From Candidatus Saccharimonadota bacterium (GTDB lineage Bacteria; Patescibacteriota; Saccharimonadia; Saccharimonadales; Saccharimonadaceae), in contig JAFWIU010000012.1 of the NCBI GenBank assembly GCA_017514765.1, positions 313 to 64,312 of the forward strand: a DNA stretch of 64,000 bases, given 5' to 3'. Position 1 is the stretch's first letter. Each line of letters opens with the position of its first letter. Shown piece after piece: positions 22,405-58,188 of the stretch. Position numbers and translations under genes: made by a program. Below the pieces are notes generated by a model that saw only the letters and a program-made list of their open reading frames with translations, did no database searches and was not told the origin of the DNA.

Positions 22405-23188
22405 TCGGAAAAAGTCACCACACAAATCTTTCAAGCGGACTTATCGGGAAGATTACGTGCGAGGACTCAATGTACCTGGGATGGGACAACATATCGTAGA
22501 AGCTTTCCAGATGCTTGGGCGGAATTGGAAGGTTTTTGGGTCGCTATTAATACTATCAGCTGTACTTGAGATATTGGCGGTACAAACGACTGAAGAAACT
22601 ACAGCAGTATTTACGATATTGATTTTTCTGATGATATGGCTGACAACGATCTTCTTGGTGAGGCACATCAAAGCTAAGCATAAGGTGACTTTACGCGATG
22701 GATTATATAATGCGATGGCGCCTTTGATACCGACGTTGATAGTATTTGTGGTGGCAGTGGTGGAATGTATACCGATTTTTGTACTAATAATTGCCTATTC
22801 GGCAGCAGTGAAAACGGATTTTCTAACAATGCCGTTTTATGCGTTGATGTTTTTCGGATTTGCGGGATTGATGCTGACGTTGTCGGGGTATTTATTGTCA
22901 TCGTCATTAGTTGCATTAATTGCGGTGAGCGCGCCAGGAATCTATCCATTAAGTGCTTTTGTGACTGCTGCGGAATTGATGATGGGGAGAAAAATTCGGT
23001 TTGTTTTGCGGTTAATCGCTTTAATGTTGGTGCTGGCGGTAATGATGGCAGTTGTGGTGTTGCCACTAGCGGCGCTAAAGGTACCAATGGAAGTGCTGTC
23101 GGTAATAGTATCGTTCGTGGGTTGTTTCGGTGCGATTTATATGACGGTTTATTTATATTTATACTACCGTTGGCTGCTGGATGCGTGA
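22385..23188 (+). CDS. Hypothetical polytopic membrane protein
   Basis: About 6 hydrophobic segments; overlaps htpX end. Confidence 0.7.
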   Translation: MVKKSSSRKKSPHKSFKRTYREDYVRGLNVPGMGQHIVEAFQMLGRNWKVFGSLLILSAVLEILAVQTTEETTAVFTILIFLMIWLTTIFLVRHIKAKHKVTLRDGLYNAMAPLIPTLIVFVVAVVECIPIFVLIIAYSAAVKTDFLTMPFYALMFFGFAGLMLTLSGYLLSSSLVALIAVSAPGIYPLSAFVTAAELMMGRKIRFVLRLIALMLVLAVMMAVVVLPLAALKVPMEVLSVIVSFVGCFGAIYMTVYLYLYYRWLLDA

Positions 23189-23200
23189 TAAAATAGTATT

Positions 23201-25300
23201 ATGAATAAAATGGATGCGGAGAAAAGAATCGCGAAATTACGCGAGTTAATTAATGATTATCGTTATCATTATCATGTACTTGATGAGTCGATTATGAGTG
23301 AGGCGGCGGCAGATTCGTTGAAACATGAATTGTCATTATTAGAGGAAGAATATCCGGAGCTTATAACGTCAGATTCGCCGACACAGCGGGTGGCTGGTAA
23401 GCCTCTAGATAAGTTTGAGAAGGTGCGACATGAAAAGCGGATGATTTCGCTCGCGGATGTGTTTTCGGAAGAAGAGGTGCGGGATTGGATTACGCGCAAT
23501 GAAAAACTGATACCTGGTGGGAGGATTCAAGAGTTCTTTACGGATATCAAGATGGATGGATTAGCGTGCTCACTGAAATATCGTGATGGTGTGTTCTATC
23601 AAGCTGTTACTCGTGGTGATGGGTTGGTTGGTGAAGATGTGACTTTGAATGTAAAAACTATTCAGAACGTACCCTTAAACCTCAGAAGTATTTCTTCATC
23701 GTCGGGCCGCGTCCGGCTGGCCCGTCGCCACGGGCGGCCGGCGCTACCCCTCGCCTTGCCAGGCTCCGGATTCCCTCCGATTGAAGAAATACCTTCTGAG
23801 GTGGAGGTGCGCGGGGAAATCGTTATATTCAAAAAAGATTTTGAACATCTCAATGAGTTACAGCGGAAGAAAGGAGAGGCGGAGTTTGCGAATCCACGGA
23901 ATCTTGCGGCGGGTTCGATTCGGCAGCTTGACCCGAAGGTGGCGGCTAGTCGGCCGTTGAAGTTTATTGCATATGATTTGGTGGCGCCGGATTTGCCGAC
24001 TTGGCATGAAGCGTACGATAAACTGCGAGAATTAGGATTTCAGACTTCTGGTGAAGACAGAGTGTTTTCGAGTCAAGACATGAAGGAGTTGTTTAAGTAT
24101 ATAAGTGAACTGGACGAATATCGGAAAGGTCTGAAGTTTAATACGGATGGTATGGTGATAAAAATCAATGATAGGGCTGTGTATGATAAGCTCGGGATTG
24201 TAGGGAAAACGCCGCGCGGGGCGGTGGCGTATAAGTTTCCGGCGGAAGAGTCGACGACGGTGGTGCGCGATATTGTGATTTCAATTGGGCGGACTGGCGC
24301 GGCGACACCGGTGGCGATATTGGATCCGGTATCAGTGGCAGGGACGACAGTGCAGCATGCGTCGCTACATAATGCGGATGAGATCGCAAAGTTAGATGTG
24401 AGGATTGGCGATACGGTGATTATCTATAAGGCAGGTGATATTATCCCGCAGGTAAAGGAAGTGTTGGTGGCTCTTAGGCCAGAGGGGACGGTGGCGTTTG
24501 ATTATGAAAAGGCTCTAAAGAAACAGTATCCGGAATTAACATTTGAACGTCCGGAGGGGGAGGTAGTGTATCGGGTTAAGGGAGAATCATCAGATCTGAT
24601 ATTGAAGCGGACGGTGGAGTATTATGCCTCGAAGCCAGCGCTGAATATCGAGGGGTTAGGGGAGAAGAACGTAGAGGCTTTGATTGATGCTGGATTGGTG
24701 CACTCGATTGCGGATTTGTATCGGTTGTCTGTTAGTGAGGTAGCGAAATTGGAGAGATTTGGGGAAGTGTCGGCGCGGAATTTGGTAAGTGCGATTCAAG
24801 AATCGAAGAACCCGACTCTGGCGAAGTTTGTCACGGCACTTGGAATTCGGCATGTGGGTGCGCAGACGGCGGTGAGTTTGGCACGAAGATTTAAAAGTTT
24901 AGATAAGTTGATGATGGTGACGAAGGAGGAGCTGCTGTCGGTTGACGATATTGGTGAAGTGGTGGCGGAGTCTATTCTGGCGTGGTTTGCGGATGAAGAC
25001 AACGTGAAACTACTTGAAGAATTACGTGGGTTGGGTGTGTGGCCAGTGGAAGAGTCGAGGGCTGTGTTGCCGCTCGATGGGCGGTCGTATATTGTGACTG
25101 GGACGCTCGCGTCGATGGGGAGGGAAGAGGCGGAAGATAAACTGCGAGAGTTAGGTGCGACAGTGACGTCTTCGGTGACTAAGACTACGACGGCTTTGAT
25201 TGTAGGAGAAAAACCCGGAAAATCTAAGGCTGACAAAGCTGCGAAATTGGGTATCCCGACGATTGATGAGGCGGAGTTTTTGAAACTGGTGAAAATGTGA
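23201..25300 (+). CDS. ligA: NAD-dependent DNA ligase with an in-frame palindromic insertion
   Basis: KMDG adenylation motif, TRGDG, EVRGE, NPRNLAAGS, PRGAVAYKF, HhH motifs, BRCT; the C4 zinc-finger cysteines are not evident. Confidence 0.96.
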   Translation: MNKMDAEKRIAKLRELINDYRYHYHVLDESIMSEAAADSLKHELSLLEEEYPELITSDSPTQRVAGKPLDKFEKVRHEKRMISLADVFSEEEVRDWITRNEKLIPGGRIQEFFTDIKMDGLACSLKYRDGVFYQAVTRGDGLVGEDVTLNVKTIQNVPLNLRSISSSSGRVRLARRHGRPALPLALPGSGFPPIEEIPSEVEVRGEIVIFKKDFEHLNELQRKKGEAEFANPRNLAAGSIRQLDPKVAASRPLKFIAYDLVAPDLPTWHEAYDKLRELGFQTSGEDRVFSSQDMKELFKYISELDEYRKGLKFNTDGMVIKINDRAVYDKLGIVGKTPRGAVAYKFPAEESTTVVRDIVISIGRTGAATPVAILDPVSVAGTTVQHASLHNADEIAKLDVRIGDTVIIYKAGDIIPQVKEVLVALRPEGTVAFDYEKALKKQYPELTFERPEGEVVYRVKGESSDLILKRTVEYYASKPALNIEGLGEKNVEALIDAGLVHSIADLYRLSVSEVAKLERFGEVSARNLVSAIQESKNPTLAKFVTALGIRHVGAQTAVSLARRFKSLDKLMMVTKEELLSVDDIGEVVAESILAWFADEDNVKLLEELRGLGVWPVEESRAVLPLDGRSYIVTGTLASMGREEAEDKLRELGATVTSSVTKTTTALIVGEKPGKSKADKAAKLGIPTIDEAEFLKLVKM
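23679..23802. repeat. GC-rich nested palindromic element inserted in frame in ligA
   Basis: Terminal inverted repeats ACCTCAGAAG-TATTTCTTCA-TCG / CGATTGAAGAAATACCTTCTGAGGT; inner hairpin CCGGCT-G-GCCCGT-CGCC-ACGGGC-GGCCGG. Confidence 0.8.
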
Positions 25301-56363: not shown

Positions 56364-56554
56364 AACAACAAAAAGGTGTTTTCTAAAGCTTGGACTTTTA
56401 AACTGTAAGACCTGCAACACAAGGTAAGAAAAAATCTCCTTATTCGCCCTTCGGGCTGAGGGAGATTTTTTCGTTGTTGAGTTGCAGAGCTTACAGTTTA
56501 GAAATCTGGTCTAAATCTCATTATGCTTTAGAAAACACCTTTTTGTTATTCTAT
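56360..56554. mobile_element. MITE-like long nested inverted repeat (~195 bp)
   Basis: Perfect 23-bp IR AACAAAAAGGTGTTTTCTAAAGC (56367-56389) / 56525-56547, extendable to ~30 bp with 1 mismatch; inner arms AAACTGTAAG, CTGCAAC, GAAAAAATCTCC; central TTCG loop. Confidence 0.55.
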
Positions 56555-56571
56555 GTGGTATAATAAAGATT

Positions 56572-58188
56572 ATGGATAAACTACAGTTTGATGGGCCTGT
56601 GGTCCTGGCAGTATTAGATGGGGTGGGGTTGGCGCCAGATGCACCTGGTAATGCGGTGAGTCGGGCGAGGACACCGTTTCTGGGAAATGCGGCGAGAGAT
56701 TGTTTGCATGTAGCACTTAATGCTTCGGGTGAAGCAGTGGGGCTTTTGCCTGGGCAGATGGGGAATTCGGAAGTGGGTCACAACACGATGGGGTCAGGTC
56801 AAGTGATTAAACAGGGTGTTGCGCACATTGAAGAAGCGTTTGCGACCGGAAAAATATTTGAATCAGAGGCTTGGAGGGGGTTGATTACGCGAATTATATC
56901 AGAAAACTATGCTAGTGGTGAAAGGAATCAAAAGGCGACTTTGCATTTTGCGGGAATTTTTTCGGATGGGGGAGTGCATAGTCATATTTCGCATCTTGAG
57001 CAGATGATTGTGAAAGCCTATGAGCAGGGGGTGCGGCGGATGAGAGTGCATGCGATTTTTGATGGGAGGGATGTGCCACCGCAAGCTGAGCCGAAGTTCA
57101 TTCGGAGATTTGAAGATTTTGCAAAACGATTTGAGGGCGCCGATATTAAGATAGCTTCTGGCGGTGGGCGGATGGTGTGCGTGGCAGATAGATATGAGAA
57201 CGATTGGTCGGTGGTAGCGAGAGGCTGGGATATGATGGTAAACGCACAAGCTGATTATTTCTTCAAATCAGCGGAAGAGGCAGTCATGACGCTGAGGCGA
57301 ATTAATCCAGAAGTGCAGGATCAGTATCTGCCAGCTTTTGTGATTGTAGACGATGATGACCGACCAGTAGGGCAGATTAAAAAAGGTGATGCTTTGGTGT
57401 ATTTTGACTTTCGGGCAGATAGAGCTATTGAAATTGCACAGGCGTTTACTTATTGGGATTTTCCTTATTTCAACCGTGGCAGCTATACACCAGATGACGT
57501 GTATTTTGTGGGGATGACGGAGTATAATTCGGATACACATGTACCGGAACACCGTTTGGTGGAGCCGGTGAAAATTACGGAGACTTTGAGTCGATTCTTG
57601 GGCGAGAAGGGTGTTAATCAGTTGGCGATTTCGGAGACGGTGAAGTATGGGCATATTACATATTATTTTAATGGAAATAGTTATGATAAGGTGTCGGGTG
57701 AGGAGTTTACGGAAGTAGAATCGTATGTGGAGCCATTCGAAACGAGACCATGGATGCGATGTGCAGAGATTACAGATACACTAATTCGGGAACTGTCGAA
57801 CTATAAGTTTGTGCGTGTGAATTATCCAGGTGGTGATATGGTGGGGCATACGGCGAATATGGAGGCGACAATTGTGGCGATGGAAGCGATTGATCTGTCT
57901 CTTGCGAGGTTGGCAGAAAAAATAAATGAATTAGGTGGGTGCATGGTGATAGTGGCGGATCATGGAAATGCAGAAGAATTATTGGATGCGGAGGGGAAGC
58001 CGAAGACTGCGCATACGACTAATAAAGTGCCTTGTATTATTTATGATAAGACTGAGAATCGGTTGAAGTATCAATTAAGTGAAGTGGCGGAGCCGGGTTT
58101 GGCGAATCTCGCTGCAACGATTGCCATGCTGCTAGGGTTTGATGACTATCCAGAACAATGGGATGCTGCATTAATTAAAGTTCAGTAA
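56572..58188 (+). CDS. gpmI: 2,3-bisphosphoglycerate-independent phosphoglycerate mutase
   Basis: VLDGVG, GQMGNSEVGH, DGGVHSH, DGRD, MVCVADRY, DFRADR, SETVKYGHITY, DMVGHT, ADHGNAE, AHT. Confidence 0.96.
   Translation: MDKLQFDGPVVLAVLDGVGLAPDAPGNAVSRARTPFLGNAARDCLHVALNASGEAVGLLPGQMGNSEVGHNTMGSGQVIKQGVAHIEEAFATGKIFESEAWRGLITRIISENYASGERNQKATLHFAGIFSDGGVHSHISHLEQMIVKAYEQGVRRMRVHAIFDGRDVPPQAEPKFIRRFEDFAKRFEGADIKIASGGGRMVCVADRYENDWSVVARGWDMMVNAQADYFFKSAEEAVMTLRRINPEVQDQYLPAFVIVDDDDRPVGQIKKGDALVYFDFRADRAIEIAQAFTYWDFPYFNRGSYTPDDVYFVGMTEYNSDTHVPEHRLVEPVKITETLSRFLGEKGVNQLAISETVKYGHITYYFNGNSYDKVSGEEFTEVESYVEPFETRPWMRCAEITDTLIRELSNYKFVRVNYPGGDMVGHTANMEATIVAMEAIDLSLARLAEKINELGGCMVIVADHGNAEELLDAEGKPKTAHTTNKVPCIIYDKTENRLKYQLSEVAEPGLANLAATIAMLLGFDDYPEQWDAALIKVQ

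Follow-up and report, generated by a model that had tools for sequence, protein, structure and literature searches.

The 64,000-nucleotide stretch analysed here (hereafter the window; positions 313 to 64,312 of contig JAFWIU010000012.1, assembly GCA_017514765.1, from a Candidatus Saccharimonadota bacterium) contains the gene ligA for the NAD-dependent DNA ligase, and the adenylation domain of this gene carries an in-frame insert that folds back into a long hairpin. The insert is a 102-nt copy of a dispersed GC-rich fold-back repeat present 28 times in the same genome; it is probably translated as an extra loop of the enzyme and is probably selfish, much like the Rickettsia palindromic elements (RPEs). 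Several of its properties, namely private stems that appear to be built from host codons, a core that has been inverted in place and an orientation that follows GC skew, set the family apart from its closest known counterpart.

The host gene was identified as ligA from the Pfam domains and source names attached to its homologues and from a phmmer comparison with the LigA adenylation domains in the PDB (E = 5e-76). The adenylation motifs KMDG, TRGDG and EVRGE, which in LigA precede the OB, HhH and BRCT domains, are all found in the translation, and homologues of the protein carry the name Candidatus Saccharibacteria. The insert forms the greater part of a 124-nt hairpin whose outer part consists of two perfectly complementary inverted-repeat blocks of 10 bp (23679-23688/23793-23802) and 11 bp (23688-23698/23782-23792), combining into a 21-bp stem with a single bulged C at 23792. 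The 20-nt arm has no second match in the window at up to 3 mismatches, 0 being expected from shuffles, and GC content reaches 0.70 in the hairpin core against approximately 0.44 genome-wide. The RNA fold of the hairpin was calculated at -80.1 kcal/mol (z = -5.6; 0 of 200 shuffles equally stable), and a scan of window positions 23000-24500 against Rfam returned no family at E≤1. Between VPL and EVRGE the window protein has 42 residues, compared with 8 in PDB entry 1B04 and 7-8 in most alleles of the genus in which the loop is empty (9-15 in a minority). An earlier reading of the same DNA, made from the letters only (the sequence-only reading), had described a GC-rich segment of about this size with terminal inverted repeats and a strong inner hairpin, and had put the extended VPL-to-EVRGE segment at about 42 residues; all of this was borne out, the inner hairpin lying at 23709-23744.

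Other copies of the repeat, for which the sequence-only reading had suggested a search of the genome and of related metagenome-assembled genomes, are plentiful. A BLAST comparison of the 124 nt with its own 697-kb, 12-contig assembly (G000) matched eight further places, all over element positions of approximately 24-103, i.e. the GC-rich core, and laxer settings yielded additional matches in the same assembly. A covariance model was then built from an alignment of 13 copies and matches with E below 0.01 were counted as copies, giving a total of 28 in the genome, 15 of them above 60 bits; the weaker matches are sister subtypes sharing the common tip of an inner hairpin termed P3. The 13-copy consensus describes a three-way structure with an outer stem (P1), a closing helix (P2, GGG/CCC), P3 and a smaller hairpin (P4, which in other copies reads GCGC TGCC GCGC or GGC AGCA GCC), and changes on both sides were observed in 24 of its 33 pairs, including those of the variable P3 stem. 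Every copy is flanked by an inverted repeat of 20-30 bp whose sequence is different at each locus. Common to the copies are only the three-way core of approximately 75 nt (P2, P3 and P4) and an inverted repeat of the element's own, an inner stem of 7-11 bp with a weak CTTTC/GAAAG consensus, outside which the arms differ everywhere. Near-identical copies within one genome (95.7% over 92 nt) are accordingly alike in the core and an inner stem of 8-10 bp, and their arms diverge directly outside these. The 3' junction often contains a single bulged base, and extra bases are found more often in the 3' arm (67) than in the 5' arm (36).

The copies are overwhelmingly genic. Of the 28 in the genome, 25 lie inside long open reading frames (ORFs) that stay open through them and three lie in short spacers between genes; in two relatives the corresponding numbers are 21 of 25 (G021) and 22 of 24 (G017), and in a sample from about 50 other genomes 71 of 83 copies are in ORFs. 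Host genes include ligA, lepA and a methyltransferase-like gene with two copies, among others, and further hosts are putatively ileS, leuS, pheT, der and obg (as judged from the ORFs, no family search having been made). Ten copies run in the sense of their host gene and 15 against it, in several reading frames, so that at least four different combinations of frame and orientation would be translated; none of the genic copies breaks the frame or introduces a stop codon, whichever way it lies. Because excision or skipping would allow two thirds of the copies to shift the frame, and none does so in either orientation, the insert is presumably transcribed and translated with its gene, as a 34-residue loop without any particular sequence.

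The size of the insert was established by comparison with empty sites, which the sequence-only reading had proposed to look for among LigA orthologues. Such sites exist: in the 30 ligA loci fetched from 40 genomes of the genus the majority have an empty loop, examples being VPL-RIDGDEI-EVRGE and VPF-KISEPGEV-EVRGE. Removal of 102 nt from the window gene leaves IQNVPLNLRS/PSEVEVRGE (the slash marks the junction), which has the length of the commonest empty allele, IENVPFKISE/PGEVEVRGE. The phmmer alignments to 1B04, 4UCO and other structures break at query residues 163/198 with contiguous residues in the structure chain, and solved LigA structures have no counterpart of residues 164-197. The restored length and the alignment break together identify the insert as 34 codons rather than the 41 of the full hairpin. 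Within the adenylation domain it sits in a short loop that joins the VPL strand to motif III (EVRGE), and this loop may lie at the surface of LigA, judging from its variable length and from the missing counterpart in the sequences of solved LigA proteins; an AlphaFold2 model of LigA was too poor to be used as evidence for a surface loop (mean pLDDT 58, pTM 0.36). The features of the insert and its host gene are listed in Table 1.

Table 1. Host gene, hairpin and inserted unit in the window (coordinates are window positions)
Feature	Position	Strand	Remarks
ligA (NAD-dependent DNA ligase, 699 aa), host gene	23201-25300	+	open through the element; from the ORF list
Whole 124-nt hairpin: outer stem, inner stem, three-way core	23679-23802	+	
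Inserted unit proper, 102 nt, codons 164-197 (ISSSSGRVRLARRHGRPALPLALPGSGFPPIEEI)	23690-23791	+	
Example tryptic peptide within residues 164-197			HGRPALPLALPGSGFPPIEEIPSEVEVR
5' outer arm ACCTCAGAAG (codons N-L-R-S)	23679-23688	+	100% complementary to 23793-23802
3' outer arm CTTCTGAGGT (codons P-S-E-V)	23793-23802	+	host-like; empty alleles P-G-E-V
C23792	23792		single bulged base at the junction of unit and 3' arm
5' inner stem of the element (TATTTCTTCA)	23689-23698	+	pairs with 23782-23791
3' inner stem of the element (TGAAGAAATA)	23782-23791	+	
P2 5' half, junction-closing helix, GGG	23704-23706	+	pairs with CCC at 23773-23775
Inner hairpin P3	23709-23744	+	closing GCG/CGC, variable 7-bp stem (CCGGCTGG/CGGCCGG), conserved tip CCCGTCGCCACGGG
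Small hairpin P4, GCCT TGCC AGGC	23753-23764	+	

Comparison with empty alleles also bears on the origin of the private stems. At the position of the left ligA arm the empty alleles have K/R-I-S/D-E, without complementarity to their own right flank, whereas the left flank in the window (N-L-R-S vs K-I-S-E) is unlike theirs and is the exact inverted complement of the right flank. At a second site, C12:41323, the right arm is identical at 17 of 18 positions to the empty allele of genome G031 (TTACCAATCGTCTTCGTG), the left arm is the inverted copy, and the loop outside the 90-nt unit is equal in length to that of G031, the net gain being 90 nt. The lepA copy has a left arm (S-E-G-P-A-P-S-F) resembling empty alleles (E-R-G-P-C-P-S-F) and a right arm that is the copy; in leuS, the arm encoding T-I-R is host sequence. 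At C9:3368 both G000 and G031 have gained 78 nt between flanks that are 83-95% identical, with wholly different arms that resemble pieces of a fast-evolving host loop of 14-16 aa. Over twelve sites the net gain relative to empty alleles is 63-117 nt, mostly 84-102 nt, which is approximately the size of core plus inner stem and below that of the hairpins of about 125 nt. No direct repeat was found at the junctions of the ligA, C12:41323 and lepA copies, where overwritten flanks would erase any target-site duplication. We conclude from these alignments that 10-20 bp of one flank have probably been overwritten by the complement of the other flank, after insertion and without change in length. An earlier interpretation taken from a comparison with E. 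coli, with one arm as untouched host sequence and the other as an added inverted copy, was replaced by length-neutral overwriting after the ligA, C12:41323 and C9:3368 sites had been compared. The terminal inverted repeats of about 24 bp named in the sequence-only reading are therefore present but do not mark the ends of the element itself; their outermost 10 bp to either side appear to be rewritten host codons.

Alternatively, the private stem could be made at the moment of insertion, the element entering together with an inverted duplication of 10-25 nt of its target, for example through snap-back synthesis from a hairpin. At some sites the net gain does exceed the common unit (+102 to +108 nt in ileS, +117 nt at C9:2665 and +117 nt at C5:42551), and the recurrent single-base bulge at the junction of unit and 3' arm could be a scar of such an event. 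However, the loop outside the unit has the length of empty alleles at ligA (exactly), C12:41323 and C9:3368, net gains are concentrated between 78 and 96 nt, close to the combined length of core and inner stem, and the extent of the stem differs between orthologous copies (in G027 it reaches into the EIEIR codons), which speaks for continuing extension. An origin of the stems at insertion is consequently regarded as unlikely.

The distribution of the family was assessed with the covariance model, which matched 33 of 36 genomes of the same genus, a Nanosyncoccus-like group of gut Saccharibacteria (ruminant gut), with 1-34 copies in each and three genomes without any. Strong matches were obtained in 4 of 94 other genera sampled within the family, and none in 24 genomes that represent other families of the same order. 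When 185,579 species genomes (one per GTDB species) were scanned for exact occurrences of the core motif, at least 120 stretches were found; among the matches listed, titles read Candidatus Saccharibacteria, Candidatus Nanosyncoccus or 'bacterium isolate' in all cases bar one, and many of the records come from the gut of sheep, goat, yak, buffalo and roe deer. The exception, a single record titled 'Actinomycetota', is a chance match in DNA of 71% GC. The repeat family is confined to a group of gut and rumen Saccharibacteria, and full-text literature searches returned no description of such a family for Saccharibacteria, TM7 or Patescibacteria.

The ligA site itself is occupied in many different ways. 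Approximately 100 of the 120 LigA clusters most similar to the window protein have something in the loop: the element is present there in sense orientation (in two frames) or in antisense, as a composite with an extra hairpin nested in it or as a 'type B' core of shorter length, or only a short scar is left; a single ancestral insertion for all alleles is ruled out by these different subtypes, frames, orientations and scars. Two ligA alleles which are 88% identical over the gene, equal in length and provided with the same outer arms differ in that the core of one is inverted, the cores being 90-91% identical as reverse complements and 57-61% identical when compared directly. This flip changes the peptide completely, which argues against any role of the peptide. 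Loss is documented by the allele NLRIVEEIPSEV, in which a 90-nt in-frame deletion has removed the core and the left inner arm and both rewritten flanks have been kept. The type B core (TCGGACACACTCAAGGCCGTTCGGCCGAGCTTACGGTCCTCGGA) occupies the ligA site in G025, G021 and G004 (loci L012, L015 and L017), where the arms have the same one-base bulge as the window copy; it suggests core replacement or decay within retained arms. In composite copies an extra hairpin of approximately 35-60 nt (…CGAGCCAGCTCG…) is nested in P3, as in the ligA of G031 (locus L011) and at C6:51162-51255 of G000, and covariance-model matches of 131-134 nt in other genomes look like further composites of this kind.

Conservation of the element was examined at the nucleotide level in the closest public ligA, a gene of the same length with 85% amino-acid and 76% nucleotide identity, which holds an orthologous copy. 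Over the 124-nt hairpin the two genes are 91% identical, and the orthologous copy differs at one position and in two symmetric blocks (element positions 36-41 and 57-62) that form the two arms of the variable P3 stem and have been swapped for a variant found in other copies. In the window these blocks correspond to positions 23714-23719 and 23735-23740; the P3 stem states CCGGCYGG/CSGCCGG, CGCTCGCG/CGCGAGCG and CGCTCGC/GCTCGCG turn up in numerous copies and genomes, which gives the impression of exchanged cassettes. Third codon positions are identical at 36 of 41 sites (88%) inside the element, against 53% of 659 sites in the remainder of ligA. At other shared sites, by comparison, the hairpin is much less similar than its flanks (60% vs 83% at C9:3368), so that shared sites can be described as 'frozen or replaced'. 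Since reading frame and orientation vary among the copies, and third positions are conserved, conservation is at the level of the DNA and not of the protein. Protein-level conservation of the loop together with a lack of further copies, which the sequence-only reading had named as the outcome that would speak against it, is the opposite of what was found. The ligA copy is a typical, old and well-preserved member of the family.

The orientation of the copies was scored against GC skew with the elements masked. The strand represented in the model coincides with the G-rich strand for 24 of the 28 copies in this genome, 21 of 25 in G021 and 19 of 24 in G017, and the wider sample gives 63 of 83; with respect to the host gene, the two orientations are almost equally frequent. 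The bias points to a single-strand, replication-linked step in insertion, or to strand-specific survival. GC skew in the 12 contigs of G000 is very strong, with an absolute value of 0.15-0.40 in 10-kb bins and one sign per contig, and is weaker on the two largest contigs, where most of the element-bearing genes lie on the C-rich strand.

Candidates for a mobilising enzyme were sought in the same genomes. Two of 41 genomes in the genus have a Y1 transposase (PF01797; IS200/RAYT), the window genome not being one of them; control genomes were matched, and a Y1/RAYT partner was rejected on this basis. The window genome has no multi-copy enzyme ORF, other transposase families not having been searched by profile, and split, half or long versions of the core that could bracket a gene were not found. 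The only multi-copy ORFs, considered as transposase candidates, proved to be secreted surface-protein paralogues, approximately ten proteins of about 650 aa that are 50-94% identical and often located at contig ends (e.g. G000 C9:4988-6952, C11:32398-34350 and C8:64835-65731, the last just beyond the end of the window); this paralogue family probably breaks the assembly.

A course of events may be proposed in which the element would bring a short inverted repeat of its own into a host loop, where template switching within one strand at the hairpin, correcting or extending a quasi-palindrome, would overwrite 10-20 bp of one flank and so create a private stem of 20-30 bp for each copy. The same template switching, or recombination between the inverted arms, would turn the core around in place and exchange the P3 stem. 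Copies would survive only where their length is a multiple of three, the frame is free of stops and the host loop is permissive, and the recurrence of the same few sites would follow from these requirements. As template switching would yield compensatory changes without selection, the covariation in the consensus is not proof of a functional RNA. A bolder version has the repeat as a transposase-free fold-back element living on the replication fork, which would enter, extend its stem, flip its core and swap cassettes by template switching on single-stranded DNA, filled alleles with their private arms spreading between naturally transformable Saccharibacteria by homing-like gene conversion. If true, this would account both for the recurrence of hotspot sites and for the frozen nucleotide sequence of the ligA copy, and up to about eight neighbouring codons would be rewritten per insertion in essential proteins, a mobility not known from any described bacterial repeat family; we consider it doubtful.

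Several observations weigh against a selfish, translated fold-back repeat with overwritten flanks. The direction of rewriting is mixed, the template being the 3' flank at ligA and C12:41323 and the 5' flank at lepA and leuS, although a mixed direction suits a two-way mechanism filtered by protein tolerance, and the loops compared are divergent, so that insertion with an inverted target duplication retains a low probability. The total strand bias, 127 of 160 copies with a nominal p of 3e-14, is overstated in its p value because the genomes are related and their copies not independent of one another. The Y1 profile search and the inspection of multi-copy ORFs and of split or long cores yielded neither a transposase nor any other mobilising gene. 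Translation of the insert would follow from frame and stop statistics only. RNase III (rnc) is present at C11:39667-40056 of G000, and is encoded in 34 of 36 genomes of the genus, although at least 25 mRNAs would hold perfect stems of 20-30 bp; loss of RNase III as the reason why long mRNA stems are tolerated was rejected for this reason, and it is a matter of speculation that coupled translation may keep the arms apart in the mRNA. Finally, the ligA copy, with its unpaired bases and private arms, is better conserved than neutral selfish decay predicts, which hints at a function at the level of the host or at a recent spread of the allele, selection on the integrity of the hairpin being another candidate.

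A host-level function could mean that the core is a domesticated, beneficial signal, such as a binding site or structure for replication, chromosome organisation, DNA uptake or mRNA control, which would be genic because the 0.7-Mb genome is without intergenic space. The orthologous ligA copy is conserved far above the synonymous background, unpaired core bases included, sequence in loops of the core is conserved across copies, orientation goes with GC skew, a behaviour also of Chi- or KOPS-type signals, and no transposase was found. Such a function is nevertheless improbable, given that copy number ranges from 0 to 34 within one genus with three genomes lacking the element altogether, that copies are deleted or replaced by other subtypes at the same site, that the core can have either orientation at the same site, and that the patchy distribution of the family looks like invasion and not like an ancestral function.

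As a further possibility, also raised in the sequence-only reading, the hairpin might be removed at the RNA level, either excised from the mRNA like an intron (e.g. by RNase III-type cleavage and ligation) or bypassed by the ribosome like the GC-rich byp elements of Magnusiomyces mitochondria, which would give a LigA without the 34 residues. The very stable stem (-80 kcal/mol) would bring both junctions together, RNase III is encoded in the genome, and mobile GC-rich palindromes in organelles are said to be bypassed or excised. However, the frame is kept and free of stops in 25 of 25 genic copies here and in the 21 and 22 of the two relatives, a constraint that removal from the RNA would not impose, and a ribozyme or protein-recognised RNA would work in one orientation only, whereas 15 of 25 copies are antisense to their gene. 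An intron would have a fixed sense orientation and no constraint on frame or stops, in contrast to the 10 sense and 15 antisense copies, all in frame and stop-free. Stem mismatches on the model strand comprise 63 G.T and 82 A.C, which amounts to no G.T excess and to no G.U excess on either strand, so that a G.U-type asymmetry, considered as a mark of RNA-level selection, is absent. The hairpin has no Rfam match, and deletion alleles have in-frame scars, as expected if the frame matters. Removal from the RNA is thus very hard to reconcile with the data. A plain lineage-specific LigA loop, palindromic merely as a by-product of GC-rich low-complexity coding sequence, would accord with the variable length of this loop among proteins and its retention in all close relatives at 85-88% identity, but is refuted by the occurrence of the core in genes unrelated to one another, on either strand and in more than one frame, by the copy census, by the conservation of synonymous positions within the element and by the completely different peptide after the core flip. 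What fits every test run is the proposal, made first in the sequence-only reading, of a probably selfish in-frame palindromic repeat, similar to the RPEs, that is tolerated in a loop of an essential enzyme.

A second hairpin family was spotted with an exact-seed hairpin finder, which missed most bulged copies of the ligA-type repeat and was used for no other purpose. It is a loose set of long hairpins with private outer stems and includes a 181-nt, AT-richer, perfect-stemmed hairpin in the window (56367-56547; -90.5 kcal/mol) that overlaps the start region of the ORF at 56515-58188. Three further members in G000 (C6:16696-16807, C6:213894-214003 and C9:10385-10475) all contain ...GAGAAAACACCAATCT, and the window hairpin ends in the partial motif AGAAAACACC.

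With the repeat in these bacteria, 'selfish DNA inside protein-coding genes' would no longer be a curiosity of Rickettsia but would reach into the Candidate Phyla Radiation, where genomes of 0.6-1 Mb are almost without intergenic space and dozens of essential genes carry a copy. The inserts inflate and distort Saccharibacteria protein alignments, gene trees and structure predictions, create hairpins of 20-30 bp that can break assemblies, and might be used as strain markers in rumen metagenomes. Should template switching be the engine, the family would constitute a natural laboratory for hairpin-driven mutagenesis of coding sequence.

Among known systems, the optional mobile G+C clusters of yeast mitochondria, e.g. 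in var1, and the byps of Magnusiomyces mitochondria, GC-rich elements which Lang and co-workers reportedly found in 2014 to be bypassed by the ribosome, are likewise GC-rich palindromic mini-elements inside protein genes of an AT-richer, compact genome. The byps differ from the Saccharibacteria repeat in that they break the frame and are skipped, whereas the frame is kept here, and these elements are organellar and unrelated in sequence. Repetitive extragenic palindromic sequences (the REP/REPIN-RAYT system) and the IS200/IS605 insertion sequences (ISs) share the hairpin, and the replication-strand bias resembles the preference for the lagging-strand template that Ton-Hoang and colleagues are said to have described in 2010 for single-stranded DNA transposition of the IS200/IS605 type. 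REPs, however, are extragenic and have conserved stems with a GTAG or CGTC tag, and a RAYT-like Y1 enzyme is present in 2 of 41 genomes here. Quasi-palindrome template switching, the subject of work by Ripley in 1982 and, on E. coli quasipalindromes, by the Lovett laboratory, is an established mutational process that reportedly makes imperfect inverted repeats perfect in one step, and would account for the private, near-perfect stems, the P3 block swaps and covariation without selection; to our knowledge it is familiar as a hotspot of point mutation and not as a repeat family that remodels 10-20 bp of flanking coding sequence.

Classical bacterial MITEs (miniature transposable elements bearing inverted repeats) such as Correia, ERIC, RUP, Nezha and others have been reviewed (PMC10969869), and the present repeat resembles them in being small, non-autonomous, structured, multi-copy and sometimes intragenic. 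A MITE family is marked by terminal inverted repeats common to its members, by target-site duplications in direct orientation and by a parent IS. Here the outer arms differ at every locus, the junctions of the ligA, C12:41323 and lepA copies show no direct repeat, which overwriting of the flanks would have erased, and no multi-copy enzyme ORF, split or long core or Y1_Tnp domain points to a related autonomous IS, other transposase families not having been profile-searched.

The RPEs, families RPE-1 to RPE-10, are palindromic repeats that occupy many housekeeping genes without disturbing the frame, and no transposase is known for them (Ogata et al., 2000, 2002, as summarised in PMC10969869); the sites of insertion are regarded as suiting the fold of the protein, and each family encodes a conserved peptide (PMC10969869). 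The Saccharibacteria repeat is similarly a palindrome of approximately 100-150 bp that occurs in a host-dependent bacterium with a small genome and keeps the frame of the unrelated housekeeping genes it enters, with 25 of 28 copies in open ORFs. It belongs to another phylum, and among the matches listed its core motif occurs only in Saccharibacteria records apart from the one chance match, no direct alignment to an RPE consensus having been made. In contrast to the RPEs it encodes no conserved peptide, copies being read in several frames and both orientations and the peptide being altered by core inversion, and only the core of approximately 75 nt and a short inner stem are common, the outer stem being private and apparently derived from host codons. 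We know of no report of either core inversion in situ or strand-asymmetric orientation for RPEs. The closest known phenomenon is the RPE, from which the present family differs by its private, apparently host-derived stems, its inversion in place and its strand bias.

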